A stretch of 64,000 nt of DNA from Nitrososphaerota archaeon (GCA_011605775.1 JAAOZN010000092.1:547-64546), one strand, 5' to 3'; shown: positions 1,590 to 22,102, counted from the first letter of the stretch. Notes: generated from the sequence alone by a model not told the origin. A program made the numbers and translations.

Positions 1590-2246
1590 CTAAGCTAGAC
1601 CGATCTTCTGTTTTATCAAAGCTATTTCTCTCTCAAGTCTTTCGAACCTTCTCTCCATGTATTGTTTTAGATCTTCTCTCAGGGCCCTTATCTCCTCCCT
1701 AGTAGCTCTTATTTCATCTCTCGTTGCCCTTATTTCTGCTAACGTTTCATCCTGCTTCTTTAACATTGTTTTCATGTCTCCCTTCATCTCCTTAATGTCT
1801 CCCTTCATCTCCTTAATGTCGCCTTTCATCTCTTTAACGTCGCCTTTCATCTCTTTAATGTCGCCCTTCACCTCCTTAATGTCGCCCTTCACCTCCTTAA
1901 TGTCGCCCTTCATCTCCTTAATGTCGTCTCTCATTTCAACGCCGACTGTTGCGATCTTCACTAGTTGTTCTAGGCTTAGTTGCTCCCTGTATTCTTTCAC
2001 CTCCATTACCTCGCCATCATACCCCTCCACGAGAACTTCGCTTACTTCTGCTAGCGGGGGCTTCTCAGCCTTGACGGTTTGTGTGAATCTTTTGACGCTA
2101 TCTTCTTCTCCTTCGATCAAGAGTATGAGGTCTTCGCCTATGTTCGATGCCTCGAACCCCTTTAGGCTGCGCGCTCTACTTAGTAAGAAGAGTCTGTATC
2201 CCACATCTTGGACTCTCTTTCCTTTGATTATGATTTTGGTCTTCAC
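1590..2246 (-). CDS. acylphosphatase-like domain protein with KGDIKEM heptad tandem repeats and a C-terminal coiled coil
   Basis: N-terminus IKGKRVQDVGYRLFL resembles the acylphosphatase V-x-G-x-VQGVGFR signature. About 8 copies of KGDIKE[MV], then EIRATRDEIRATREEIRALRE. TAG stop. Confidence 0.5.
   Translation of the reverse strand: MKTKIIIKGKRVQDVGYRLFLLSRARSLKGFEASNIGEDLILLIEGEEDSVKRFTQTVKAEKPPLAEVSEVLVEGYDGEVMEVKEYREQLSLEQLVKIATVGVEMRDDIKEMKGDIKEVKGDIKEVKGDIKEMKGDVKEMKGDIKEMKGDIKEMKGDMKTMLKKQDETLAEIRATRDEIRATREEIRALREDLKQYMERRFERLEREIALIKQKIGLA
1774..1941. repeat. 21-bp tandem repeat, 7 full copies plus 1 degenerate (coding, in frame)
   Basis: Unit atgtc[tg]cc[ct]ttca[tc]ctc[ct]tta starts at 1774, 1795, 1816, 1837, 1858, 1879, 1900 and 1921. 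It encodes the heptad repeat of the 1590-2246 protein on the minus strand. Confidence 0.9.
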
Positions 2247-2296
2247 AGCCTTGTATTGTTGTGTAGGCTCGTAGATAAGCCTTACTAACCTTCTTG

Positions 2297-2824
2297 CTAA
2301 GCGGCTAGGGGTTCTTGATGTTCTTCGGATGCCTTATGTTCAACCTCCTTTAGCACCTCTTCAACCTGCTTGTTACTTATCGAACCTTTCTCCGCTCTTT
2401 TCTGGGATGTAGCTACATCGCATAAGATTTCAGTAAGCTCTCCGAGGGCGTCAGCGTCTACACCGACTGGTATCTGCCACAGTGTCCCGAGTAGGTTGCT
2501 GAGTGATGCGGTTAGCTGCTTCGATTCAAGCAGAGTCTCCAATCTTACGCTGAGCTGTGTCACGTGGTTTCTGATCTCTTTTACAGATTGGCGTAGCCGC
2601 CTCAGGTAGTGGACTTCAGAAGCATAGATCGATGCAGAGACCCTATCACCACTCTTAAGCCGCCAAACGGCTTTAGAGAAGCAGTCGGATTCAAGGGTCT
2701 CTAGTCTGGCTAGCGAAAGGTCTAGCTTTGCTGCTTGCTTCTTGAGCGAGTGTATGCATTCGATTAGCCGCCTTCTAGCCTCTTCTTGACTTACATCATC
2801 TTGTGCACATCGGTTAGGCAACAC
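2297..2824 (-). CDS. ESCRT-III / Snf7 (CdvB)-like helical protein (tentative)
   Basis: 175 aa, all-helical. The segment AVWRLKSGDRVSASIYASEVHYLRRL resembles the ESCRT-III alpha2 pattern (A..alk.Gd...Ariya.e.i..rk). Acidic C-terminus. TAG stop. Confidence 0.4.
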   Translation of the reverse strand: MLPNRCAQDDVSQEEARRRLIECIHSLKKQAAKLDLSLARLETLESDCFSKAVWRLKSGDRVSASIYASEVHYLRRLRQSVKEIRNHVTQLSVRLETLLESKQLTASLSNLLGTLWQIPVGVDADALGELTEILCDVATSQKRAEKGSISNKQVEEVLKEVEHKASEEHQEPLAA

Positions 2825-3027
2825 CTAAGTCCTAGTGGGTTCTGCGTGGGTTTAGCAAGGTTTATGCAATCTTTTTGACCAAGAGATGTGAAGATTCACA
2901 CCGATCTCAAGCTGAGGTGTATGTTATGCGCTGTCTTGCGTATTCCAGTAAGCATATACCAACATTGTGTTGTTTTACCTTATTTTCCTAATTTATTACA
3001 AAAATACGCCCTTCTTTGAAGAATTAA

Positions 3028-3035
3028 TTTAAATA
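3028..3035 (+). promoter_or_regulatory. TATA box (TTTAAATA) at the left edge of the viral gene block
   Basis: AT-rich region 2940-3040. TTTAAATA lies 24-31 nt upstream of the ATG at 3059. Confidence 0.4.
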
Positions 3036-3058
3036 TTTGCAGGGAAGGTCAAAGGTTG

Positions 3059-3292
3059 ATGACGAAGAGGGAGAAGCCGAGAAGCTTGGCAAAGAGCGGA
3101 TTAGATGGACTAGGGTCGAAAGAGGGCTCTTGGGATATTAGGGTGCAGCTGCTCTGGCTTGCTAAGCATGGGTTGACCGAGTCAACGATCCTGGAGCATA
3201 GGAGGCTCGTACATAGGGATGGTAGGCTTTCAGAATATGTACCCAGCTCCGCTAGGGAGTTGAATGGGTATGAGGTACTGCTCACTGAATGA
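3059..3292 (+). CDS. hypothetical protein (first gene of the viral block)
   Basis: ATG at leaderless distance from the TATA box. 77 aa, no recognised domain. Confidence 0.35.
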   Translation: MTKREKPRSLAKSGLDGLGSKEGSWDIRVQLLWLAKHGLTESTILEHRRLVHRDGRLSEYVPSSARELNGYEVLLTE

Positions 3293-3608
3293 CGTTAAGG
3301 TGTGGTTGAACCTATCAACCTCAGATACCCAATACGACTTTGAGATTCAGCAGATCGCTTCGAATGTTGAGAGTCAGATAGATGAGGCGCTCAAACCATA
3401 CACACCAATACCGCTAAAGGAGGTGCCTGAGGAGATTAGGTGGATAGCTGCCGAGTGGACGGCAGGGATCTTCAGGCAGAAGAGGGCTGGCTTAGATGAG
3501 TCGAAGGAGCAGCCTTTCGTAGTTGAAGCTAAGGAGAGGCTGAAGGCGTTCATCCGCTCCAACTTCACCTCTGGGTTGGCTGCTTCTACGGGTGTTGCTG
3601 TTAGGTGA
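3264..3608 (+). CDS. head-tail adaptor (phage gp6-like connector family)
   Basis: YCSLNDVKVWLNLS..D..I..I...VE..ID matches the usual N-terminal pattern of gp6-like head-tail connector proteins. Its stop overlaps the next start (GTGA). Confidence 0.5.
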   Translation: MGMRYCSLNDVKVWLNLSTSDTQYDFEIQQIASNVESQIDEALKPYTPIPLKEVPEEIRWIAAEWTAGIFRQKRAGLDESKEQPFVVEAKERLKAFIRSNFTSGLAASTGVAVR

Positions 3609-4036
3609 GGTGTTTGGTTTACAGCGAGATAGTGCAGAAGTATATTGATGTGATGCGCTCAAACCCAGATCTAAAAGAGGTATCAGCATACCACTTCGGC
3701 GCACCAACCACCATACACCAATACCCTCTGATCTATGTTCAGTGGCTTGGTAGAGAGTATAGCGGGAGCTCCGACCTACACCGATTCCAATACAACCTAA
3801 AGTTTGAGATAGGTGTCGTTATGCGCCACGCAGTAGCCGAAGAGGCTGAGAAAGGGCTCCATAGGCTTGTTGAGGCAATAGAGGCTGCCCTTAACTCCAA
3901 CCCCACTTTGGACGGGTTGGTGGAGGGCGATCCTGAGCCTCGAAGTATAGAGGTTATGCGTGGCTCTGAGCAGGACTATGCTTTAGCTCTAGCTAGGATA
4001 ATTGATGTGAAGAAGGTGTGGTTACCTTATGTTTAG
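3605..4036 (+). CDS. neck / tail-terminator-like protein (tentative)
   Basis: 143 aa. The call rests mainly on position between the adaptor and the tail tube, plus size and a mixed alpha/beta pattern. Confidence 0.3.
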   Translation: MRCLVYSEIVQKYIDVMRSNPDLKEVSAYHFGAPTTIHQYPLIYVQWLGREYSGSSDLHRFQYNLKFEIGVVMRHAVAEEAEKGLHRLVEAIEAALNSNPTLDGLVEGDPEPRSIEVMRGSEQDYALALARIIDVKKVWLPYV

Positions 4037-4116
4037 AAGGTCTGCTGACGAGCCGGTGAAACTCCGGCGAAACACCAGAGGATGGTGTCCAGACCGAATA
4101 GGAGGTGAGTCATAAT

Positions 4117-5073
4117 ATGGCTAATTATCTAAGAATGGGTAAGGAGCAGATCTATGGAGTACCAGCAACCAACCTCAACACACACGTCAGAATCCTCTCA
4201 GAGGGTCTGAAGTTTCAGCCTGGCGTTGAGTATCTGCGGACCGTTGAGGGCGGAAGGTTCATTACGCAAGCAGACCTATCTAAGGCTAAGACCACAGGCA
4301 GCATCGAGCTCTACCCGGTTTACGATAAGGGGTTGGGAGAGTTCCTATACGCCGCACTGGGCGAAGTTTCTACGACTCAGCCAGATCCGAATGGCAACCC
4401 TAATGTCTATAGGCACGTCTTTACACCTAGGAGCAGCGTTTCCTCAATACCTTGGCCGAGCTATACCATAGAGGTTGGCTTGGGTGACGTTGCTGCTAAG
4501 CGTGTAGCAGGCTGTGTCGTAAATAGGCTAATCTTGGAGGGGGAGGCTGGGGACCATCTTGGTGTGACAGCTGAAATCTTGGGCGGAGAAGAGAGTAAGG
4601 TTTCATTATTCTCAGGACCCTTCAACTTCTCCCAACTGGGCTACATACACACAGCACAGGTGGTTGAGCAAAAGATAAACAACACATCGGTGAAGTTTGA
4701 GCACTTCAGCCTGGAGTTGAATAATAATTTTCCAGAGGGCTACAAGTTCGGCTCAAGGTTCCCTCAGGAGATCGATGTTGCGCCTTTGGATGTCAAGGGC
4801 TCGGCGACGATCAAGTTCGACAGCAGCACACATCTAGACAAGTTCCTTGCTTCAGAGGAGTGTTCGATCAACCTGAAGTTTCAAGGTGGGGTTATATCTG
4901 GTAGCTACAGGTATGAGTTGGAGATATATCTGCCTAGGGTAATCTATGATGAAGGGGACGTGAATCTTAAAGGGCAGGATAGGCTTACGCAAACCCTAGC
5001 GTTCACAGCGCTCAAGCACGGCACAGAAGGCGTGGTTAAGATTACGCTTCAGAACAACCAGAGCGGGTACTAG
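4117..5073 (+). CDS. major tail (tube) protein
   Basis: SD GGAGGTGA (4101-4108) then ATG at 4117. Beta-rich 318 aa with tail-tube-like segments (GSIELYPVYD.GLGEFLYAALG; SLELNNN...GSRF..EI..G..DVKGSATIKFDS). Sits directly upstream of the chaperone and tape measure. Confidence 0.5.
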   Translation: MANYLRMGKEQIYGVPATNLNTHVRILSEGLKFQPGVEYLRTVEGGRFITQADLSKAKTTGSIELYPVYDKGLGEFLYAALGEVSTTQPDPNGNPNVYRHVFTPRSSVSSIPWPSYTIEVGLGDVAAKRVAGCVVNRLILEGEAGDHLGVTAEILGGEESKVSLFSGPFNFSQLGYIHTAQVVEQKINNTSVKFEHFSLELNNNFPEGYKFGSRFPQEIDVAPLDVKGSATIKFDSSTHLDKFLASEECSINLKFQGGVISGSYRYELEIYLPRVIYDEGDVNLKGQDRLTQTLAFTALKHGTEGVVKITLQNNQSGY

Positions 5074-5216
5074 GTTGCCCAGCTGCTCGCTCTGTGGCGC
5101 ACAGCTAACATCCGAGGATTTCACCATAGTTGTGAAGGTTAGAGTCAATAAAAACACCTCTCATACAGCGGTCTTCTGCTCATGGTTGCACTTCTCCGAA
5201 TGGTTCGGATTAAAGC

Positions 5217-5543
5217 GTGGGTTGGGGAGGCTTGAAAGAGGTCAGAGTTAATGGTGTAACATATAGGCTGAAGGTTCCTCAGGCTTGGCACTACGCTCTC
5301 ATACAAGTCTATGCTAATCTATTCAAGAGAGCCCAGAGTCTAGAGTCTGTAGAAGAGGCTGTTAAGGTGTCGGGTGAGATAGAGAGGATTGTGAACTTAC
5401 TCTGCGAGAGCCTCCTTGAGCCTAAGCCGAATGGTGAAGACGCCACCTACCTGTTCAATGAGATCCTCAAGTACTGCATCGAGCTCTACGGAGAGGCTGG
5501 CTGGTGTGCTGAGAAATTTCGCTTCGAGCAGCCTGGGCTCTAA
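5217..5543 (+). CDS. tail assembly chaperone candidate (G-like)
   Basis: 108 aa, helical and acidic, between the tube and tape-measure genes. The overlapping +1-frame ORF 5416-5757 fills an otherwise empty 193-nt gap (see findings). Confidence 0.4.
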   Translation: MGWGGLKEVRVNGVTYRLKVPQAWHYALIQVYANLFKRAQSLESVEEAVKVSGEIERIVNLLCESLLEPKPNGEDATYLFNEILKYCIELYGEAGWCAEKFRFEQPGL

Positions 5544-5735
5544 AGCTGGGTTGCTTGGTTTGCTTACTCATCGTGCACCCAGCTCTATACTCGGCCTTGA
5601 GGAAGGGAGCTTACTCAGCTTGCTTGTGGACGATCTATGCCTCGCCGCTGGCTTGAATCTGCTTAGGGAAGCCGATGTGAGAACACCTTCGCCGATAGAG
5701 GAGTCGAAGTGTAGGATAGAGAGGAGGAGACGCCT

Positions 5736-6194
5736 ATGGAGCTCAGAGTATCTCTAGAAAACCTCTGGGACTACAGGTACGCGATGGTGGAGGGAGCGAA
5801 GGAGCTGAAGAAAGCTTGCGACGCCGTACTCAGAAGATACAGCGAAGCCGCAGCCTTGACAGCGAGCAGATTAGCGCCGAAGCGCACTGGAAGGCTTGCA
5901 GCGAGCATAAGATATAGGAGGGAGGGTGAGATGAGCTACTCAGTAGGCTCTGAACTCATATATGCACCATTCGTCGAATGCGGGACGAAGCCGCATGTAA
6001 TAAAGCCTGTCTCGGCTAAGGTTCTTGCATTCACGGTAGGTGCAAGCAGAGTCTTTGCTAAGGTTGTCAACCACCCTGGCTCGAAGGAGAGACCCTTCCT
6101 CAGACAGGCGCTTAAAGAGATCGAACCTAGGCTTAAGGCTGAATTAGCCGCTGAGGCTGAGGGGCTCTTTAGGTTGAAGTTCCGCTTTAGGTGA
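5736..6194 (+). CDS. HK97 gp10-family tail/neck component
   Basis: APKRTGRLAASIRY...YAPFVECGT matches the HK97 gp10 family core (..TG.L..si......Ya..vE.Gt). Confidence 0.5.
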   Translation: MELRVSLENLWDYRYAMVEGAKELKKACDAVLRRYSEAAALTASRLAPKRTGRLAASIRYRREGEMSYSVGSELIYAPFVECGTKPHVIKPVSAKVLAFTVGASRVFAKVVNHPGSKERPFLRQALKEIEPRLKAELAAEAEGLFRLKFRFR

Positions 6195-6198
6195 TCGG

Positions 6199-8019
6199 TT
6201 GCCGACCTTCGATCTTGTCGCTAGGATCAAGGCGGTTGATCAGGCGAGCAGCGTCTTCAGGTCTGTGGCAGATAATGCGAGCAGACTTTCACGGGGCTTC
6301 AGTCAGCTTGGGCAGATAGCGAATATCGCAGGTGGGTTTATAGTCGCATCTCTTGGGTTGAACGCAGCTTCAGCGGTCAGAAGCTTCCTCAGCGAGGCTG
6401 TAAACACGGTGATCGAAATGAAGACCCTCAGCAGCGTCTTAAAGAAGACTATCGAAAACATGGGCTTAAGCTGGAGCGAGTGGGGACCTAAGATAACGAA
6501 GCAGATAGATGAAATGAGGGCATCAACGCTCTACACCAAACAAGAACTGCTCGAGGCTTTGACGATCCTAGTAAGATACGGTTTGGAGCCTGAAGAAGCC
6601 TTAAGAGCGCTTGCTGTTGCTATAGATACTGCTGCTGGCTCAGGTAGATCGTTGAAGCAGGTTGCTGAAGATCTTGGGCAAGCCTTTAGCGGGCAGACTT
6701 CTGATCTCAAGAATAAGTATGGTGTAGAGGTTGAAAAGACTTCTGAGAGGCTTCTTAGCTTAAAGGAGAGGGTCGAAAGCCTGGGTGAGAGGTATGGTAG
6801 GCTGGTGCTGGTAAGTGATGAAGTGGTGCAATCTTTAGCTAGTATGGGGATCACGATAGATGAAGCCTCAAAGCAGACGTTAACATGGGGAGATGTGGTC
6901 GAGCAGATAAAGAGTAGGCTGGATACGCTCGATGCCGCCGCTATAGAAGAGTTCTTAGAAAGGTATGGTGCAGCGAGCAGCAGAGCTGAGAAGTCAGCCC
7001 TAGATTTCGCAGAAATACTCTCGAGGTTGGATGAGAAGTTTAGGGGGAGCGCCTACGCAGCCTATGAGGCTGGAGGAGCCTACGCAAGGTTCGGTAACTT
7101 AATGGAGGAAGTTAAAGAGGTCGTTGGGGCTGGGCTTATACCTATACTCGAAGCACTAGGCAATACGCTTGTTATGTGGGCTAAACCCGAGGGGAAAGAG
7201 AAGATCTTCGCACTCATGAAAAGGGACTTCTTCTCCTTTGTCGCAAGCATAGACGAGGCTGCAGCAAGCATCCAGATGATCAACGAGAGGCTTAAGACCT
7301 CGTTAATCAGCGACTACAAGGCAGTCTTTGATACAATATCTTCAGCAGCCAACAACGTGCTTAATCTGATACTTAACACCTTTACACCATTTTTATCAGC
7401 TTTGGTTGAAGCTACATCAAACACGTTCAGAATAGTAACAGAGGTTGTGTTAAACAGCCTAGACAGGCTCAGGCAGAGCGCAGATCAAACATTCAGAGCG
7501 ATCGTGGAGAATCTCCTTTCACTCTCAACCTCTTGGACCCAGATAGTGGAATGGATAGTAGAGAGGAGTGAGGGGATCTTGAACCCCATCGAACAGATTC
7601 AACTGCGCCTAACTACGTTGAGAAGTGTGGCTGGTGAGGTTTGGTCCTCAATTTCGGCATCGATGTGGAGGTTTTACACAGAAGCTTTGATCCCTATCCA
7701 AAACGCCGTTTGGGGCTTCGTCAACTCAGTAGTAGCGGCATTCAACTGGCTCTGGGATGTTTTAGCGAAGAGGAGCATCTGGCCCGATATATGGGCTGAG
7801 ATGCTGAGCCAGGCTAAGAGCGGTCTAATGGCTATCGAGAGGACAGTTGAGCCAGCCCTTCTTGATCTAGCGCATATGTTTGCTGCGTTGAGTACTGTGA
7901 ACATAGGGTCTATTAACATAACAACCCACGCCATATCATCAAGCATCGATATTAGGAGATTGGCTGAGCAGGTTGGGTATGAGGTAGCGAGGCAGCTGAG
8001 CCTTAGGAATAGAATCTGA
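6199..8019 (+). CDS. tail tape measure protein
   Basis: 606 aa, almost entirely helical. Central segment ELLEALTILVRYGLEPEEALRALAVAIDTAAGSGRSL resembles the tape-measure core. Hydrophobic C-terminal third. Canonical position. Confidence 0.7.
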   Translation: MPTFDLVARIKAVDQASSVFRSVADNASRLSRGFSQLGQIANIAGGFIVASLGLNAASAVRSFLSEAVNTVIEMKTLSSVLKKTIENMGLSWSEWGPKITKQIDEMRASTLYTKQELLEALTILVRYGLEPEEALRALAVAIDTAAGSGRSLKQVAEDLGQAFSGQTSDLKNKYGVEVEKTSERLLSLKERVESLGERYGRLVLVSDEVVQSLASMGITIDEASKQTLTWGDVVEQIKSRLDTLDAAAIEEFLERYGAASSRAEKSALDFAEILSRLDEKFRGSAYAAYEAGGAYARFGNLMEEVKEVVGAGLIPILEALGNTLVMWAKPEGKEKIFALMKRDFFSFVASIDEAAASIQMINERLKTSLISDYKAVFDTISSAANNVLNLILNTFTPFLSALVEATSNTFRIVTEVVLNSLDRLRQSADQTFRAIVENLLSLSTSWTQIVEWIVERSEGILNPIEQIQLRLTTLRSVAGEVWSSISASMWRFYTEALIPIQNAVWGFVNSVVAAFNWLWDVLAKRSIWPDIWAEMLSQAKSGLMAIERTVEPALLDLAHMFAALSTVNIGSINITTHAISSSIDIRRLAEQVGYEVARQLSLRNRI

Positions 8020-8033
8020 GGTCTGTTGCTTAG

Positions 8034-9476
8034 ATGCTTTACGCAAGGGTTGAGATAACCGATTTGAATAACATTACGCGTGTAGTGGGTAGTGAGAACC
8101 GAGGCTTTGAGCTGAGGCTACACCACAATAGCGCAAGCACCTTTAGGTTGGTGGTCAACGACTCCGCTGGATTCTACAGGGAAGCATACGGAATAGGCTC
8201 TATTGTGAATGTTTTCTGCGACTCTGCAAACCCGCCTAGGCAGCACGTGTATCAAGGGCAGGTTGAGGATGTGAGTGTAAGGTTTGAAGGAGGGCGTAGA
8301 CTACTTGTCGTAGACGCTGTGGAATACGCATATACGGTGATTCTGAATAGGTATGTGGTTGAAACGTATCAAGATAAGAGCTTCGACTACATCGTGCAAG
8401 ATCTGTTCGCCAAGTATGCTCCTGAAGTTGACACACGCAACGTACAGCCCCCGAACACGAGTGGGAGGAGCTTCGTCTTCAACTATGTTACGCTGAAGGA
8501 GTGTTTGGATCAGCTCGCTGAGTTGGCTAACTGCCAATATTACTTCACACCAGACCTTGAACTCTACTTTTACCCTAAAGGCTCTAGGCGCTCCGGGTTT
8601 ACGTTGACCTCAGAGAACATTCTTCAGCCGATAGAGGTGTTAGAGAGCATACGTGAGGTGCGTAATGTAGTCTATGTGATAGGTGGGTATGAGTTAAGGG
8701 TTGATCAGAGCCAGACCAACATAGGTGGCTACGTAACCCTAAACGAATACCACTACGCAGCAAGATTCACACCAACTCAGAACAATCTGCGCATGTTAGC
8801 ACTCTACTTGGAGAAGCAGGGGGAACCAAACGAAAACATAAGTGGTCAGATCGTAGAAGAGTTGGATGGGGCTCCGAAGGGTAGGAGGGTAGACTACTTC
8901 ACCATTACGCCTCGTGATGTAGGTGAGGAGGGGTCACCGGGCTGGGTCTCTCTTCCGCTGCAAGCGGATGTTGAACCTGGTAAGGCTTACTGGATAACTC
9001 TATCAAAGAGCGGAACTCAGACAGAAACTTATCGCTGGTATCACGATGCCTCAGACCAAGGAATACACGCATACTCATCTAATGGCGAGGATTGGAGTGT
9101 TGATGAGGGTAGCTGGGCGCCTACATTCAAGCAGTTCTGCGGAGTTCCGGTCTTGGCACAGGCAGTCAATGAAAGCAGTGTTAAGAAGTATGGAAGGAGG
9201 GAGTTGGTGTATGTCAACACCAACCTCATCGACAGATCTACCGTCAAAGCGTTAGCGCTGAACCTTCTTGCTGCATCGGCTGAAAAGAGGCTTAATGTTG
9301 AAAGCCTTGTGGTAAGGGGTCTACCCGGGCTGCCGAAGGTAGGTGAGAGCGTTAGGGTTACGCTGCCAGAGATAGGGTTGGACAAAGAGTTCAAGATCAA
9401 AAGTGTAGTTGCTGAGTTCAGCGCTGGTGTGCCCTCGTTAGAGGATTTTAAGCTGGAGTTGGAGGACCTTGCCTGA
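8034..9476 (+). CDS. distal tail / baseplate protein (Dit-like, tentative)
   Basis: 480 aa and beta-rich, immediately downstream of the tape measure. Called from position and the N-terminal pattern. Confidence 0.4.
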   Translation: MLYARVEITDLNNITRVVGSENRGFELRLHHNSASTFRLVVNDSAGFYREAYGIGSIVNVFCDSANPPRQHVYQGQVEDVSVRFEGGRRLLVVDAVEYAYTVILNRYVVETYQDKSFDYIVQDLFAKYAPEVDTRNVQPPNTSGRSFVFNYVTLKECLDQLAELANCQYYFTPDLELYFYPKGSRRSGFTLTSENILQPIEVLESIREVRNVVYVIGGYELRVDQSQTNIGGYVTLNEYHYAARFTPTQNNLRMLALYLEKQGEPNENISGQIVEELDGAPKGRRVDYFTITPRDVGEEGSPGWVSLPLQADVEPGKAYWITLSKSGTQTETYRWYHDASDQGIHAYSSNGEDWSVDEGSWAPTFKQFCGVPVLAQAVNESSVKKYGRRELVYVNTNLIDRSTVKALALNLLAASAEKRLNVESLVVRGLPGLPKVGESVRVTLPEIGLDKEFKIKSVVAEFSAGVPSLEDFKLELEDLA

Positions 9477-18649: not shown

Positions 18650-18670
18650 TTACGATACATACAAAATTAA

Positions 18671-19641
18671 ATGGAGTACCACGTGATCAACTTGGTTAAG
18701 TCACTTGTTGGAAAGGAGGCATCAGATTCTGAGAAGGCGCATCTTATCAAGATCCTATGGAATGTGGGTAGAGTTCTTCAGCCCCTAGAGATCAACCAAA
18801 TAATTAACAGTTTACCAAAAGAGTTGGTTGCGGATAAAGAGAAGTTGATAAGGTTCTTATTGTTGACAGCCTTTCTTGATCAACAGGCTGATTCGCCTTC
18901 TGCACGGAGCACAGCAATAAAGATACATCAACTATTTGGTGATGACTTGTTTTCAAAACCCCAAGAATGCCTTATACAAATAAATAAGTTGGCAACCATC
19001 AAGGATGAATACAAGATTTCACCTGCTATAGGCAGAGTATTGCCCCGTTTTGGCTGGTTCATCTTAAGGGTCGGAGGCTTTTTAACCTATCAAATGATGT
19101 TGAATAAGAGTAGGCTGTCCGAAAAGTTCGCTGAATGTAAAACGCCGAAAGAGGCGATTATGCTGCTGCAGAGCAACCCTCTTGTTGAGTCATTCTTAGA
19201 GAGAAGGCCGTTAGAATGTATATTTCTTGGATAGGGCACCCTGATTTGGGAATAGATGTATCTAACGGTAAATGGCATAAGTCGCTCTTTGAAATGCCTG
19301 TTGATGGACACGTTGGCAAGATTTTCTCGAGAACTGGACTTGTTTCAGAGGTCGTCCACGAAGGGAAGCAGCATAGTGGAGGTCGCTGGAACATTATCGT
19401 AGCTTCTAAGATGCGGGTGCCAATACAAGAGGTAACAAACCAATATAGCGAGGATTGCATTATGGTTGACCACGGCGCTTTCCAAATAGGTATTAATTGC
19501 TGCCCAGACAATTTAGTAGGCATAGCGTGTGACGTCTGCCCAAGATCCTCCGTCTGTCAAATCAAGTCTAAAATTGGTTGTAAAGGCTATTGCATGCTTC
19601 ACGACTTTTGCAAAAGGAATTTGGTGTGGCGCGCATACTAA
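18671..19641 (+). pseudogene. EndoIII/HhH-GPD-like protein with an Fe-S cluster loop, split by a -1 frameshift near 19200-19234
   Basis: Fragment 2 has PVDGHVGKIFSRTGL (like vDtHv.Rv..RlGl) and C-x8-C-x2-C-x5-C (CPDNLVGIACDVCPRSSVC), close to the EndoIII 4Fe-4S loop. Fragment 1 ends ..SNPLVESFL and frame 1 continues REKAVRMYISW. Confidence 0.45.
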
Positions 19642-19690
19642 TCAGATAATATTAAATACTATCACAACATATGATAATGTGAGGAAAACT

Positions 19691-19849
19691 ATGCCTATGG
19701 TTTACGTTTCAGAGAGAACTAAAAAGTTGTTAGAGAAGATTGTTGAGATACTACGTAAGAATACAAACACGCCAGCTAGAATAGTGAAGAGTGATGCAAT
19801 CCACGCAGCTGTTGAGGAATATGCTAAAAAGCTGGGTGTAAAAGAATGA
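19691..19849 (+). CDS. ribbon-helix-helix (CopG-like) small DNA-binding protein, possible controller
   Basis: 52 aa. N-terminal beta strand MVYVSERTKKLLEKIVEIL followed by two helices. ATGA overlap with the methyltransferase start. Confidence 0.4.
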   Translation: MPMVYVSERTKKLLEKIVEILRKNTNTPARIVKSDAIHAAVEEYAKKLGVKE

Positions 19850-20814
19850 TCTCTACTTGGCATAAAATAATCTTTGGAGATTGCAGAGATATGCACGAAA
19901 TCCCAGACGATTCCATTCATCTAATGGTTACCTCTCCACCCTACTATAACGCTCCATTTGACTACCCAGACCTTTTCAAAAGCTACGATGAGTTTCTCGA
20001 ATTGATGAGGGCATTTGCAAAGGAGCTCTACAGAGTTATGGCTCCAGGGAGAATCGCAGCCTTCGTTACAGACGACATGCTTGTCAAAGGAGAAAAGTAT
20101 CCAGTAGTTTCTGATATCACAAAGATCATGATCGAGGCCGGCTTCAGATACAGAGATAGAATCGTTTGGGAGAAGCCTGAAGGATATATTAGGATTAGCA
20201 GGAGGAGTGGCGTGCTTCTGCAGCACCCTTATCCTATGTACTTTTATCCAGATAACATACAGGAGAGCATCATAATATTTCAGAAAGGCAGATTTAATTT
20301 TGACTATATTAAAAGTTTGGACCCAAAGATCGTGGAAGCCTCGAGAATAGATTTAAAGAAGTACAGTGAGGAAAAATGGTATCTTACCATCTGGAGGATC
20401 ACAAACGTTCTTCCATTCGAAAATAGGCTTGAAAAGGGCGTAGCCGCCTTCCCAGAAGAGATACCAAGACGCCTAATAAAACTATACACATTTGTAGGCG
20501 AAACAGTCCTAGACCCTTTTCTCGGCTCAGGGACCACGACGAAAGTAGCTAAAGAGCTGGGGAGAAACAGCATAGGCTATGAGATAGACCTTGAACTCAA
20601 GGATACCATTTTAAAGAAGATAAACTATAATCAGACCACCCTCGCAAACCACAGATTTGAGATAATAGAGCGCTCAGACGCTAAGAAGCTCAGAACATTC
20701 CTCCAAGAAAAAGTGAAAAACCAACGCTCAGTAGTGAATAAAAACACAATCAAGATTACATCAGCAACATCAACAGATAACAACTACGCCAAAACCCACA
20801 TAAACACACTTTAA
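19846..20814 (+). CDS. beta-class DNA methyltransferase (SPPY motif; N4-cytosine or N6-adenine)
   Basis: Motif IV MVTSPPYYNA precedes motif I LDPFLGSGTT (IV-to-I order means beta class). Confidence 0.8.
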   Translation: MISTWHKIIFGDCRDMHEIPDDSIHLMVTSPPYYNAPFDYPDLFKSYDEFLELMRAFAKELYRVMAPGRIAAFVTDDMLVKGEKYPVVSDITKIMIEAGFRYRDRIVWEKPEGYIRISRRSGVLLQHPYPMYFYPDNIQESIIIFQKGRFNFDYIKSLDPKIVEASRIDLKKYSEEKWYLTIWRITNVLPFENRLEKGVAAFPEEIPRRLIKLYTFVGETVLDPFLGSGTTTKVAKELGRNSIGYEIDLELKDTILKKINYNQTTLANHRFEIIERSDAKKLRTFLQEKVKNQRSVVNKNTIKITSATSTDNNYAKTHINTL

Positions 20815-20936
20815 TCACAATAATCAAAAAAGCTGTTCGCTGGCGAGTTTGTAAGTTTTACTTGAAAACTTTGATCCAATTGTCTTCCGCATATTCACCA
20901 TTTTTAGAAGGAGATGAAGATGCGGGCCCGCCGGGA

Positions 20937-20960
20937 CACCCGGAACCCTCTCTTGGGTTT
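20937..20960 (-). other. tRNA intron 2 (24 nt, T-loop position 59/60), BHB motif with one extra unpaired C
   Basis: The outer helix is the T stem CCGGG/CCCGG. Central helix UCCG/CGGG. Bulges AA|A and UG|U. Inner hairpin AACCC-AAGAGA-GGGUU. Confidence 0.7.
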
Positions 20961-20989
20961 TTCGGACCCGGGACCCCCGGGTTAAAAGC

Positions 20990-21011
20990 TTCACCGAGGC
21001 TCTTTGCCTCA
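20990..21011 (-). other. tRNA intron 1 (22 nt, position 30/31), canonical hBHBh' motif
   Basis: Central helix CACC/GGUG. Bulges GG|U and AA|G. Inner hairpin GAGGC-AAAGA-GCCUC. Outer helix GAG/CUU. Confidence 0.8.
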
Positions 21012-21088
21012 CCGGTGCTCTACCTGGCTGAGCTACGGGCCCGCTGTATGGAGGGTTTAAGTAGGGACTATTATCTCTTTATGTTGGT

Positions 21089-22102
21089 TTGGAGAGTGGG
21101 TTGCTGGCTGAGTTTCCTTTTAAGAAGGCGGAGAATCTTAGGCGTGTGCTTGTGGTTACTCATAGGAATGCTGATGTTGATGCCTACGCTTCAGCGTACG
21201 GTGTTGCGCATATTCTGAGGAGGCTTAACTCTAGGTGTGTGGTTGCGGTTGCTGCTCCAGAGGGGCTCAGCGGTTTGGCTAGGGTTGTGCAGGCTGAGTA
21301 CCCTCTTGAGGTTGTGTCTTCGCCTCGGTTTGAGGAGCAGGATATGGTGGTTATAGTGGATACTGGGCACGCGCAGCTTCTGAGTGATTGGGTTGAGCCG
21401 ATTAAGAGCGTTGAATGTAGTAAAGTGCTGATAGATCACCACCCTCATTCGGAGAGTGTGAAGCAGCTCGTAGACCATCTGCTGGTAGATGAGGAGGCGA
21501 CCTCAACTAGCGAGATCGTGCTCTCCATACTTGAGGCGAAGCATATGAAGATACCTCAGAAGGTCGCTGAAGTGCTCCTATTGGGTCTTATGACAGACAC
21601 AGCTGGTCTAAACTTAGCCGAATGCACAACGCTTGAGAACGCCGTCAAACTCTGCAGATGTGGCGCTTCACTCGCCAAGGCTAGGCAGATGCTCCGAGTC
21701 AAGAAGGATGCGTCTGAGAAGATAGCTAGATTAAAGGCTGCTCAGAGGCTTAAGATCTACAGGCTTGAGGACTGGATCGTAGCGGTAACACACGTAGGCT
21801 CTTACCAAGCCTCAGCAGCAAGAGCTCTAATAGACTTGGGTGCGGATGTAGCTGCAGCGTTGGGTGAAGTCGATGATGAGGTGAGGGGGAGCCTTAGGGC
21901 TACTCAAGAGTTCTGTGAGAAGAGTGGCATACACCTTGGGGTGGATGTTGCTGAGAAGGTTGGTGCTGCGCTACAAGGTGCAGGTGGAGGTCACGCTGGT
22001 GCGGCATCATTCACAGCAAAAAGACCTCTACAAGAAGCTGCGGATAAAGTATTGCTCACCTTGGCTAGGAAGGTTGATGCTCCGCTTCAGGAGATAACTT
22101 AG
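21089..22102 (+). CDS. DHH-family phosphoesterase (NrnA/RecJ-like)
   Basis: Motifs THRNADVDAYAS, VIVDTGH and LIDHHPH, with a C-terminal GGGHAGAA (DHHA1). Confidence 0.75.
   Translation: MESGLLAEFPFKKAENLRRVLVVTHRNADVDAYASAYGVAHILRRLNSRCVVAVAAPEGLSGLARVVQAEYPLEVVSSPRFEEQDMVVIVDTGHAQLLSDWVEPIKSVECSKVLIDHHPHSESVKQLVDHLLVDEEATSTSEIVLSILEAKHMKIPQKVAEVLLLGLMTDTAGLNLAECTTLENAVKLCRCGASLAKARQMLRVKKDASEKIARLKAAQRLKIYRLEDWIVAVTHVGSYQASAARALIDLGADVAAALGEVDDEVRGSLRATQEFCEKSGIHLGVDVAEKVGAALQGAGGGHAGAASFTAKRPLQEAADKVLLTLARKVDAPLQEIT

Follow-up and report, generated by a model that had tools for sequence, protein, structure and literature searches.

The DNA analysed (the window, 64 kb) derives from an ammonia-oxidiser-type archaeon (Nitrososphaeria) and carries a virus-derived gene block at positions 3056-18649. 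The genes of this block run in one direction and form a tail module of siphovirus type (adaptor, terminator, tube, frameshifted chaperone, gp10-like gene, tape measure, hub, LamG and discoidin fibres) followed by the large terminase gene (TerL) and an ABC-ATPase/GNAT gene. A first-pass annotation had called a co-directional tail block at 3028-20922. Pfam and PHROG family matches agreed with the tail-block part of this call, but the virus-derived genes stop at 18649, and 18634-20916 is a separate insertion. Three lineages of the block are known in all: A (the window), B (L007 and L013; ~15 kb) and C (six MAGs, contigs up to 431 kb). The features are as follows, with family matches in parentheses.

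3020-3040, + strand: TATA-box-like putative promoter element AATTAATTTAAATATT, ~25 nt upstream of the first gene
3056-3292, + strand: p78, first gene of the block, kept in A, B and C (dN/dS 0.04-0.10)
3264-3608, + strand: head-tail adaptor, gp6/gp15-like (phrog_132 at 0.009; dN/dS 0.07-0.08)
3605-4036, + strand: tail terminator (phrog_4204 at 2e-6), homologous to p152 of L014 and p142 of L019
4117-5073, + strand: major tail tube protein (PF18906, 4e-25; phrog_290, 9e-35)
5075-5251, + strand: p58, a small ORF kept in B and C, no family match
5217-5757, + strand: tail assembly chaperone pair; G is 5217-5543, with a +1-frame extension to 5757; homologous to p103 of L014
5736-6194, + strand: HK97 gp10-like tail completion/neck protein (PF04883, 9e-6; phrog_5, 6e-16)
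6199-8019, + strand: tape measure protein, 606 aa (best PHROG 1e-8; PF10145, 9e-5; dN/dS 0.07-0.12)
8034-9476, + strand: baseplate hub/Tal-like protein, 480 aa (phrog_196, 3e-8; YQBQ-like, 6e-4)
9469-10202, + strand: p89 and p150, distal tail/fibre-associated, with orthologues in C, L019 and L033
10203-10665, + strand: two small membrane proteins, p78b and p92, holin-like candidates, 90% and 95% identical to a gene pair of L033
10669-12855, + strand: LamG/CBM fibre, 728 aa, receptor-binding protein (PF13385, 4e-27; CBM_11, 3e-5)
12856-13680, + strand: p70, p79 and p90, small ORFs with homologues in C, where p70/p79 precede the LamG gene
13677-14765, + strand: second fibre, ending in an F5/8 type C (discoidin) domain (PF22633, 2e-10, cut at 61/91)
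14767-15807, + strand: p75, p85, p123 and p68, small conserved genes upstream of TerL; p68 is similar to p73 of L014
15776-17222, + strand: large terminase TerL, a pseudogene in this assembly (PF03237, 2e-18; phrog_7579, 1e-31)
17225-18649, + strand: ABC-type ATPase-GNAT acetyltransferase fusion (PF00005, 1e-11; Acetyltransf_7, 2e-5; phrog_11143, 6e-34)
18671-20814, + strand: restriction-modification-like island, not part of the tail element (whole insertion 18634-20916, GC 0.42)
20922-21047, - strand: tRNA-like gene with two putative introns, abutting the right end; anticodon loop CTTTTAA

The full set of genes for assembly of a non-contractile tail was present by Pfam, PHROG and PDB profiles (tube, chaperone, tape measure, hub/baseplate and fibres). 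Neither a sheath match nor a sheath-sized ORF between terminator and tube was found in the ORF calls, Pfam or PHROG, and the tail was therefore read as non-contractile. As in siphoviruses of the Phage_tube_2 lineage, a tube of this family precedes an overlapping chaperone pair, after which comes the tape measure. The tube and tape measure named in the first-pass annotation were both upheld by their family matches. The tube also matched a PDB major tail protein (8xan, 3e-4), gave a dN/dS of 0.045 against lineage B, and has its nearest cultured relatives in the major tail proteins of Gordonia siphophages (26%); the tape measure matched 16 PHROG families, nearly all of them tape-measure families. 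By the rule of 1.5 Å per residue, its 606 aa would set a tail of ~90 nm. The 480-aa protein earlier named distal tail is a tail protein, but baseplate hub or Tal-like is the better name (profile match to the PDB 9h4p ‘Baseplate hub’ at 0.005; orthologues in L009, L019 and L033). The p150 protein matched phrog_5417 at 3e-20 and the tail-fibre family phrog_4176 at 1e-5, while p78 gave no match in Pfam, PHROG or further family searches. No lysis cassette or regulator was recognised in the block; the two small membrane proteins had a marginal holin match (0.09) and no match in lineage C.

The AF2 model of the adaptor (pLDDT 79) had as best folds the Mu neck subunit 5ydn (prob 1.0), the mycobacteriophage Douge connector and HK97 gp6, and its homologues p128 of L014 and adaptor108 of L019 are both located after the major capsid protein (MCP) gene. 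The chaperone is probably made with +1 frameshifting, as a candidate shift site (GAG AAA TTT CGC, 5511-5522) is identical in A, B and C and the extension frame has a dN/dS of its own of 0.10-0.13. The TATA-box-like element is likewise kept in all three lineages while the adjacent intergenic DNA diverges, and presumably serves as the promoter of the block.

No portal, MCP, protease or integrase was matched in Pfam or PHROG, as the first-pass annotation had reported. It had also raised the prospect of a cryptic capsid or portal; tblastn and HMMs from three complete relatives (L014, L019 and L033) found no portal or protease-MCP in the whole 64-kb window. These family-specific probes, which recovered portal and MCP in L014, L019 and L033 as a positive control, found neither gene in strain S (99% identical to the window) or in the compared parts of lineages B and C, and the 32 kb around the lineage-C locus held no portal or MCP. 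In a word-seeded and incomplete search, none of the best 120 of 827 MCP homologues bore the HA494 locus tag of this MAG or lay on the 226-kb or 431-kb lineage-C contigs. In complete family members, the Phage_tube_2 tube and TerL with the ABC-ATPase/GNAT pair are accompanied by a portal and a protease-MCP fusion. The placing of the tail genes upstream of TerL, and of the gp10-like gene behind the chaperone, had been considered atypical. This gene order is native to this virus family: the complete relative L019 reads portal-MCP-adaptor-...-tail-...-TerL on one strand, and the gp10-like gene has the equivalent position in L009, L014 and L019. Because L019 shows the same order complete with its head, the order does not point to rearrangement. 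A single deletion in an ancestor common to the lineages appears to have removed everything upstream of the adaptor, namely the early genes, portal and protease-MCP.

The two frameshifts noted earlier in TerL are real. The gene lies in three frames, with an 11-bp deletion near 16693 and a 5-bp deletion near 17046 when aligned to intact P0006, and comparison with intact orthologues showed that neither is a homopolymer slip. As an argument for decay they did not hold, since only this assembly has the lesions: strain S encodes an unbroken TerL of 487 aa, and the gene is also intact in lineages B and C, in three other metagenomes and in most members of its 90% cluster; between lineages B and C its dN/dS is 0.07. 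The most conserved genes of the block are p123 and p68 (dN/dS 0.04-0.06); p123, for which the AF2 model was unsuccessful (pLDDT 33), could be a small-terminase analogue. The ABC-GNAT gene (dN/dS 0.10-0.15) directly follows TerL in L010, L011, L013, L014 and L027, and by this position it appears to be the constant TerL partner in the family. The conservation of TerL and ABC-GNAT might reflect co-option of these two alone, for example in nuclease/ATPase defence or DNA processing, with the tail genes kept for a separate reason. TerL homologues do occur alone or with few neighbours in Nitrososphaerales (L031 and L032), and ABC-GNAT has weak matches to the defence ATPases mad3, mad8 and LmuB. We consider this account highly improbable: the PADLOC matches look like generic ABC-ATPase similarity, with none for TerL, p123 or p68, and the TerL-ABC pair is also found in complete virus-like elements (L014).

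The 728-aa LamG fibre was identified correctly in the first pass (Laminin_G_3, 4e-27, plus a CBM11-like stretch). Its hypervariable core, ~11792-12163, has been replaced between the window and strain S and also between lineage-C strains, and is the sole hyperdivergent segment among strains 99-99.8% identical, in two lineages. The C-terminal part of the fibre gave a dN/dS of 5.9. The flanks of the fibre module are 88-92% identical in nucleotides to L033, a contig from a complete virus encoding PCNA, portal and MCP; its tube and hub share only ~30% aa identity with their counterparts in the locus. The head-less locus has thus exchanged fibre sequence with a complete virus recently, which, like the hypervariability of the LamG domain, supports selective maintenance. 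Through recombination with viruses, part of the apparent conservation in the fibre region could be imported. The discoidin fibre carries a lesion overlooked in the first pass, a TGG>TGA nonsense codon at 14580-14582. Both L013 and strain S have TGG at this position, and in strain S the gene is intact (362 aa).

At least three species carry this head-less block at a syntenic site and with an identical left junction; in lineages B and C and several metagenome contigs it is placed between a Snf7-like gene and tRNA-like/DHH/ECF/aEF-2 genes. The pooled four-fold-site divergence of the element was 0.327 against 0.361 for the host flank (A-B), and 0.630 against 0.641 (A-C; saturated). Identical junctions and synonymous divergence equal to that of the host flanks indicate vertical descent. 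Within the head-less clade, dN/dS was 0.04-0.22 in all core genes including the shifted frame of the chaperone, and was low in tail genes, TerL and ABC-GNAT alike. These comparisons show that in three species the block has diverged in step with its host, under purifying selection that matches in strength the selection on neighbouring host genes, and maintenance by selection is supported at the lineage level.

The first-pass annotation had offered two readings, a deletion-riddled remnant or a tail device maintained by selection, and had pointed to dN/dS and to disruption in related strains as ways to tell. The tail genes gave no indication of relaxed selection, and the genes are intact in strain S. 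The remnant reading was right as to origin (one ancestral deletion) and wrong as to neutral decay, given the co-divergence and purifying selection; the device reading was right as to selection at the lineage level, and its tailocin part was not established, as TerL and the adaptor are conserved too. A neutral decaying provirus, intact in appearance only, would fit the TerL deletions, the fibre stop and the neighbouring frameshift of the window, the failure to find an integrase, att site or replication gene, and the more degraded relatives L009, L031 and L032. However, ~25 ORFs are open at low dN/dS despite four-fold divergence of 0.33 (A-B) and 0.63, saturated (A-C), where neutral evolution would be expected, roughly, to leave about a hundred stop codons per 15 kb. 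The lesions (TerL deletions, fibre stop and a 1-bp frameshift) occur only in the window assembly, all three genes being intact in strain S. Neutral decay is an improbable account of the locus, and at the lineage level it is contradicted, as dN/dS is not near 1 and the ORFs are open in S, B and C. With three inactivating lesions in the window copy and one more in the adjacent island, the element may no longer work in this particular strain.

The island to the right comprises a frameshifted 319-aa gene (18671-19641), a small ORF and a type II N6/N4 methyltransferase (19846-20814; MTase_II, 4e-73). It is absent from lineage C, and its 319-aa gene, which has the 1-bp indel in the window, is intact in strain S. 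The tRNA-like gene beyond it has a canonical acceptor and D-arm, and between the window and M2 its exon-like parts are identical and its intron-like parts variable. Neither ARAGORN nor Rfam called it; it is possibly a Lys-UUU gene, judging from its anticodon loop, and a possible old integration target. This neighbour, together with a terminase encoded where a capsid is not, would suit a mobile head-less satellite that integrates site-specifically at a tRNA-linked site and takes capsids from a helper virus. Such a satellite is very unlikely, as no integrase, excisionase, replication gene or flanking direct repeat/att was found at the locus, and the identical junctions and flank-like synonymous divergence indicate vertical descent.

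We therefore favour, with a probability of about 0.6, the reading that 3056-18649 is an immobilised, head-less thaumarchaeal siphovirus derivative, selectively retained, whose tail particle benefits the host alone or with foreign heads. After the head deletion, the remainder would have been inherited vertically beside the tRNA-like gene in at least three Nitrososphaeria species, with the LamG receptor-binding domain swapped and diversified partly through exchange with active viruses. The operon would be transcribed from the conserved TATA box. The hub, tape measure and G/G-T chaperone (+1 shift at AAA-TTT-C) would nucleate a non-contractile tube of ~90 nm, to be capped by the terminator, gp10-like protein and adaptor, and the LamG/CBM and discoidin fibres would bind surface glycans of related archaea. 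The host might gain from a free tail, by F-type-tailocin-like killing or adhesion, or from a tail joined to heads made elsewhere. In the window assembly the element would be only beginning to erode, by two TerL deletions and one fibre stop.

The element may plausibly act like a tailocin. However, TerL, p123, p68, ABC-GNAT and a portal-binding-type adaptor have been kept with no portal in cis, and a pure tail weapon is thus an insufficient explanation. TerL is not known to act in the absence of a portal-bearing procapsid, and its conservation, with that of the adaptor, argues that heads may reach the tails in trans. The locus would then contribute the tail and packaging functions to a divided system, GTA-like or dependent on a virus. 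The capsids would be encoded at a second site in the chromosome or by a virus that infects the cell or resides in it, to be filled by TerL with p123, p68 and ABC-GNAT and joined through the adaptor. The purifying selection seen in the head-less clade on TerL, on its partners and on the adaptor is consistent with this, and the fibre exchange with L033 implies that such viruses probably meet the element in the same cells; complete thaumarchaeal elements have also been proposed to be GTA-like (PMC6563490). As a full account we regard it as unlikely, given the missing head genes in the window and around the lineage-C locus, the lack of an HA494-tagged MCP among the homologues searched, the distance of the L033 adaptor and portal from the adaptor family of the element, and the loss of TerL in this strain, where it was dispensable enough.

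Bacteria are well known to make weapons and delivery devices from phage tails; their F-type tailocins are flexible tails without head and packaging genes. Like the F-pyocins of Pseudomonas, the favoured head-less derivative is a chromosomal, vertically inherited siphovirus tail cluster without sheath, capsid or portal, in which the specificity-determining fibre domain differs between strains. It shares with F-type tailocins the tail set, the lack of head genes and a fixed, selected locus, but not the absence of a terminase. Unlike F-pyocins, it has an archaeal host and retains TerL, partner genes and the head-tail adaptor under selection, and no recognisable lysis cassette or regulator was found in it. 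We know of no true tailocin with a conserved TerL, its partners and a portal-binding-type adaptor. Gene transfer agents are likewise domesticated tailed-virus morphogenesis clusters that include a terminase but no genes for replication or integration; they need capsid and portal genes, however, of which the locus has neither in cis. Like cf-PICIs, it encodes part of a virion and might rely on another element for the rest. Unlike them it is immobile: cf-PICIs make heads, steal tails and move by integrase, replication and att functions, and the integrase, replication and att/mobility features of phage satellites (PICI or cf-PICI-like) were not found.

The locus resembles the immobilised Caudovirales-derived elements of Thaumarchaeota (Nvie-Pro1, NCAV2-Pro1, NitIsl-Pro1 and CalSub-Pro; Krupovic 2011/2019, Abby 2018) in host phylum and in having no integrase, att or replication genes, and its relatives L014 and L019 carry a protease-MCP fusion as described for Nvie-Pro1 and NCAV2-Pro1. 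By comparison with their descriptions, it differs from Nvie-Pro1-type elements in having lost portal, MCP and protease and yet persisting across species. Published work already suspects that the complete elements of Thaumarchaeota, in which int, att and replication genes are missing, have been domesticated (PMC6563490, PMC5797428). Domesticated defective enterobacterial prophages under purifying selection were described by Bobay et al. 2014, as cited in PMC5797428; going by that citation, they too are deletion-truncated and vertically inherited with their remaining genes under purifying selection, whereas the present case is archaeal, head-less and has a hypervariable receptor-binding domain.

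Only contractile-type tail-derived systems have, as far as we know, been discussed in archaea. In agreement with the first-pass annotation, which knew of no earlier archaeal case, no archaeal non-contractile tail device and no head-less thaumarchaeal element were found in the literature searched. Kept intact by selection in three related species, the locus is a candidate “tail weapon”, which would be the first of non-contractile type from an archaeon. More tentatively, it could be the first archaeal non-contractile tail nanomachine, retained by Nitrososphaeria over the time that separates species, with a LamG domain diversified by exchanging cassettes with live viruses. It would be used as a free, tailocin-like particle against related archaea or, more unusually, as a tail and terminase donor to capsids of another element; the latter use, if true, would be the mirror image of capsid-forming satellites. 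It offers a concrete, testable candidate in an ecologically important archaeal group, and its vertical descent, host-like constraint and arms-race signature in the receptor-binding domain support the long-held suspicion that virus-derived elements of Thaumarchaeota have been domesticated. It also raises the question of the role of a conserved large terminase with no portal or capsid encoded nearby. Smaller remnants in Nitrososphaerales consist of a lone TerL (L031), TerL with a fibre (L032) and a truncated tail locus (L009), a pattern that is also compatible with slow stepwise decay.

The 64-kb window is contained in a 67,434-bp MAG contig annotated as 'Thaumarchaeota archaeon' (locus tags HA494_). 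The stretch 3056-18649 holds about 27 ORFs that all run in one direction, many with overlaps of 4-8 nt, and the assigned genes are listed below. The first-pass annotation had described about 30 such genes over 3028-20922; the co-directional block was recovered, and the part at 18634-20916 was found to be a separate insertion.

Assigned genes of the tail block, with strand and supporting match.
3264-3608, + strand, head-tail adaptor (weak PHROG match; AF2 fold comparison)
3605-4036, + strand, tail terminator (PHROG match)
4117-5073, + strand, tube, Phage_tube_2 (Pfam, 4e-25)
5217-5757, + strand, overlapping chaperone pair
5736-6194, + strand, HK97 gp10-like protein (Pfam, PHROG)
606 aa, + strand, tape measure protein, TMP (Pfam, PHROG)
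480 aa, + strand, baseplate hub (Pfam, PHROG, PDB profile match)
728 aa, + strand, LamG/CBM fibre (Pfam)
+ strand, fibre with a discoidin domain (Pfam)
15776-17222, + strand, TerL (Pfam, PHROG)
17225-18649, + strand, ABC-ATPase/GNAT fusion (Pfam, PHROG)

The tube, tape measure and LamG fibre proposed earlier were all supported by the Pfam and PHROG family searches, and the 480-aa protein, previously called a distal tail protein, kept its tail role but was assigned as the baseplate hub. No sheath gene was found in the block, so the tail is non-contractile. The AF2 model of the adaptor (pLDDT 79) was closest in fold to the Mu neck subunit, the mycobacteriophage Douge connector and HK97 gp6. The nearest cultured relatives are distant, with 26% identity for the tube (Gordonia siphophages) and 31% for TerL (Halogranum tailed virus 1). 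A scan of viral contigs with the tube gave a single match, a 24%-identical tube on contig L020; the tube alignment that included distant members was too divergent for use in the locus scan.

No family match to a portal, capsid, protease or integrase was obtained in the window with Pfam or PHROG. The same searches detected a portal and a protease-MCP fusion of 749-755 aa in three complete related elements (L014, L019 and L033), so the tools would have recognised head genes of this kind had the window contained them. Searches by tblastn and with HMMs built from the head proteins of these relatives gave no matches in the 64-kb window, in strain S (a ~99%-identical strain), or in the examined parts of lineages B and C, two related Nitrososphaeria species with the same block at a syntenic site. 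The lack of portal, capsid, prohead protease and integrase noted from the sequence was thus upheld over the whole window. A cryptic HK97-fold capsid or portal was also excluded, as every ORF of sufficient length was already assigned to tail, fibre, packaging or ATPase functions, and those without assignment were all 123 aa or shorter. In a word-seeded, non-exhaustive search with the L019 MCP, the 120 best hits contained no match attributable to the MAG of the window and none from the long lineage-C contigs.

L019 carries orthologues of the core tail and packaging genes beside its own portal and MCP. L019 (JARVKA010000006.1) reads, on one strand, portal-MCP-adaptor-terminator-tube-chaperone-gp10-TMP-hub-fibres-p123-p68-TerL, and the window element is the same type of map without anything to the left of the adaptor. 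The placement of the tail genes upstream of TerL and of the gp10-like gene between the chaperone and the TMP, which the first-pass annotation had regarded as atypical, is therefore the native order of the family and not a rearrangement. The ABC-ATPase/GNAT gene (470-504 aa) follows TerL in each relative with downstream sequence, complete or head-less (window 17225-18649; L010/L011 11454-12896; L014 11259-12773; L013 3494-4906). An exact-sequence look-up of the window protein returned no record, and PADLOC, run on TerL, p123, p68, p78 and ABC-GNAT, returned nothing beyond generic ABC-ATPase similarity. The AF2 model of p123 had a pLDDT of 33.

Lineage B is GCA_964421575.1 (loci L007 and L013), with a tube 94% identical. 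Lineage C, with a tube 84% identical, comprises DRTY6_bin.124 plus five more MAGs, on contigs of up to 431 kb, and its assemblies include GCA_029775855.1 and GCA_038874695.1. In GTDB, B and C represent different species. The head-less block was also present on several metagenome contigs. Nucleotide identity between the window and B-like contigs was ~85%. Lineages A (that of the window), B and C have a common left junction, consisting of a Snf7-like gene, ~230 bp and then p78, with a TATA-like box ~25 nt 5' of p78 kept in all three. On the right, the window and lineage C, both of which have sequence there, share a tRNA-like sequence followed by DHH-ECF-SIS-aEF-2. Pooled divergence at four-fold-degenerate sites was 0.327 in the element versus 0.361 in flanking host genes for A-B, and 0.630 versus 0.641 for A-C. 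Given the shared junctions and an element divergence that matches that of the host, the simplest reading of these comparisons is that one ancestral deletion was followed by vertical descent and co-divergence with the host. This host-like divergence makes it unlikely that the block is a mobile satellite, which also would not be expected from a locus that lacks integrase and replication genes as well as att sites; a direct-repeat search flanking the block gave short chance matches only.

Smaller remnants were found in other Nitrososphaerales: a tube-to-hub tail locus directly after host genes, without head and connector genes (L009 1-8767), a solitary TerL close to an acylphosphatase gene (L031 9688-11293), and a TerL with a discoidin fibre (L032 9091-14895). 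Stepwise reduction clearly occurs in Nitrososphaerales loci. TerL seems to persist to an unusual degree in such genomes.

dN/dS was calculated by NG86 for comparisons of A, B and C, all inside the head-less clade. Against B (dS 0.45-0.70), tail genes gave low values (tube 0.045, adaptor 0.08, TMP 0.12, gp10-like 0.20), as did p123 and p68 (0.05-0.06), TerL (0.04-0.08) and ABC-GNAT (0.10). Between B and C, the values were 0.07 for TerL and 0.14 for ABC-GNAT. The +1-frame extension of the chaperone had its own dN/dS of 0.10-0.13, and the motif at its likely shift site, GAG AAA TTT CGC, was the same in A, B and C. Host flank genes gave 0.07-0.25. By a rough estimate, neutral sequence of 15 kb at such divergence would carry on the order of 100 stop codons; the orthologous copies of the block carried none. 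Of the two alternatives offered initially, a deletion-riddled remnant fits the origin of the block by an ancestral deletion, but neutral decay is contradicted at the lineage level by the low dN/dS and stop-free orthologues. Maintenance of the tail module by selection agrees with the low dN/dS and the co-divergence in three lineages, and a host-retained, functional tail-building module is the best-supported reading. All conclusions on the element rest on comparative genomics.

The product of such a module may be a free tailocin-like particle, which we consider a candidate, although the conserved TerL, its partners and the portal-binding-type adaptor would be unexpected in a tailocin. These same genes raise two possibilities: heads may come from elsewhere in trans, or the packaging module may serve a different purpose. 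Complete thaumarchaeal head-tail elements without integrase, att sites or replication genes are already known, some of them with a protease-MCP fusion, and domestication as GTA-like or 'killer' particles has been suspected for them (PMC6563490, PMC5797428). Those elements are complete with a head, whereas the window element is head-less; a literature search found no report of a head-less thaumarchaeal version and no archaeal non-contractile tailocin.

The two TerL frameshifts described earlier are present, as deletions of 11 bp (at 16693) and 5 bp (at 17046). Over 8.8 kb, these and a 1-bp indel in the adjacent 319-aa gene (at about 19230) were the sole indels between the window and strain S. 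An intact TerL of 487 aa is encoded in strain S, three further metagenomes and most members of its 90% cluster, so the frameshifts are strain-private and recent and not a property of the element. Sequencing artefacts are an improbable cause of the two deletions, which are not homopolymer slips. The discoidin fibre is cut short by TGG>TGA in the window (at 14580).

Strain S (JGI Ga0078972_1006095, contigs L021 and L027) was 98.8-99.3% identical to the window outside the LamG gene. The LamG domain core (~aa 375-505; window 11792-12163) was replaced between the two, and the adjoining C-terminal part (window 12165-12855) had a dN/dS of ~5.9. The same hot spot was the sole difference between lineage-C strains that were 99.6-99.8% identical. 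L033 is a complete virus-like genome fragment on which PCNA, portal, protease-MCP and tail genes are all present. Its stretch 13910-16150 matched the window segments 10029-11104, 11539-11790 and 12162-12242 with 88-92% nucleotide identity. These segments hold the end of p150, the membrane-protein pair and the flanks of LamG, and the match is to the fibre module only. The tube and hub of L033 were only ~30% identical to those of the element at the protein level, which points to exchange of the distal-tail module with active viruses, as occurs with phage and tailocin fibres. The sequence matches indicate that a live virus and the head-less locus recombined recently. DGR-type mutagenesis of LamG was rejected, with no reverse transcriptase match and no template repeat in 2200-21400. 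The p70/p79 pair of small proteins follows the LamG gene in the window (12856-13304) and precedes it in lineage C (L002 16488-16945), which has an additional Agglutinin_C-like gene there; the distal-tail region has thus been rearranged between lineages.

Host genes flank the element on the left (Thi4-like, acylphosphatase/coiled-coil, Snf7-like) and on the right (DHH, ECF transporter, SIS, aEF-2). The insertion at 18634-20916 (GC 0.42) was absent in lineage C. It contains a 319-aa gene at 18671-19641 that is interrupted by a 1-bp frameshift, along with a small ORF and a type II N6/N4 DNA methyltransferase. It looks like a separate, decaying restriction-modification island; the insertion was intact in strain S. 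In that strain the left junction is occupied by another type II R-M pair, 2.9 kb long, made up of a 310-aa REase-like gene and a 528-aa methyltransferase (L021 5905-8799; site at window 2915-2927), and R-M genes seem to land at both ends of the element.

Directly abutting the right end of the element is one further feature:
20922-21047, - strand, putative tRNA-like sequence

Its acceptor and D arms are canonical, the anticodon loop reads CTTTTAA and there are two putative introns; between the window and lineage C the exon-like parts were conserved and the intron-like parts variable. Neither ARAGORN (bacterial, intron and brute-force single-intron removal) nor Rfam called it, and the putative assignment was made by manual comparison. 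It may be an old integration target. On the left, the product of the gene at 1590-2246 (- strand) joins an acylphosphatase domain to a coiled coil in which KGDIKEM heptads are repeated in tandem. A gene of this kind was also found upstream of L019 (26% identical) and close to the solitary TerL of L031, and possibly marks a common locus; for L019, synteny judged from the upstream side by a 26%-identical gene is suggestive only. At window ~1555 the gene order stops matching that of strain S and lineage B, with the Thi4-like gene in the window versus GT2-TackOD1-Arf-CitMHS in S and B; this reflects either a rearrangement at this site or a join made in assembly.
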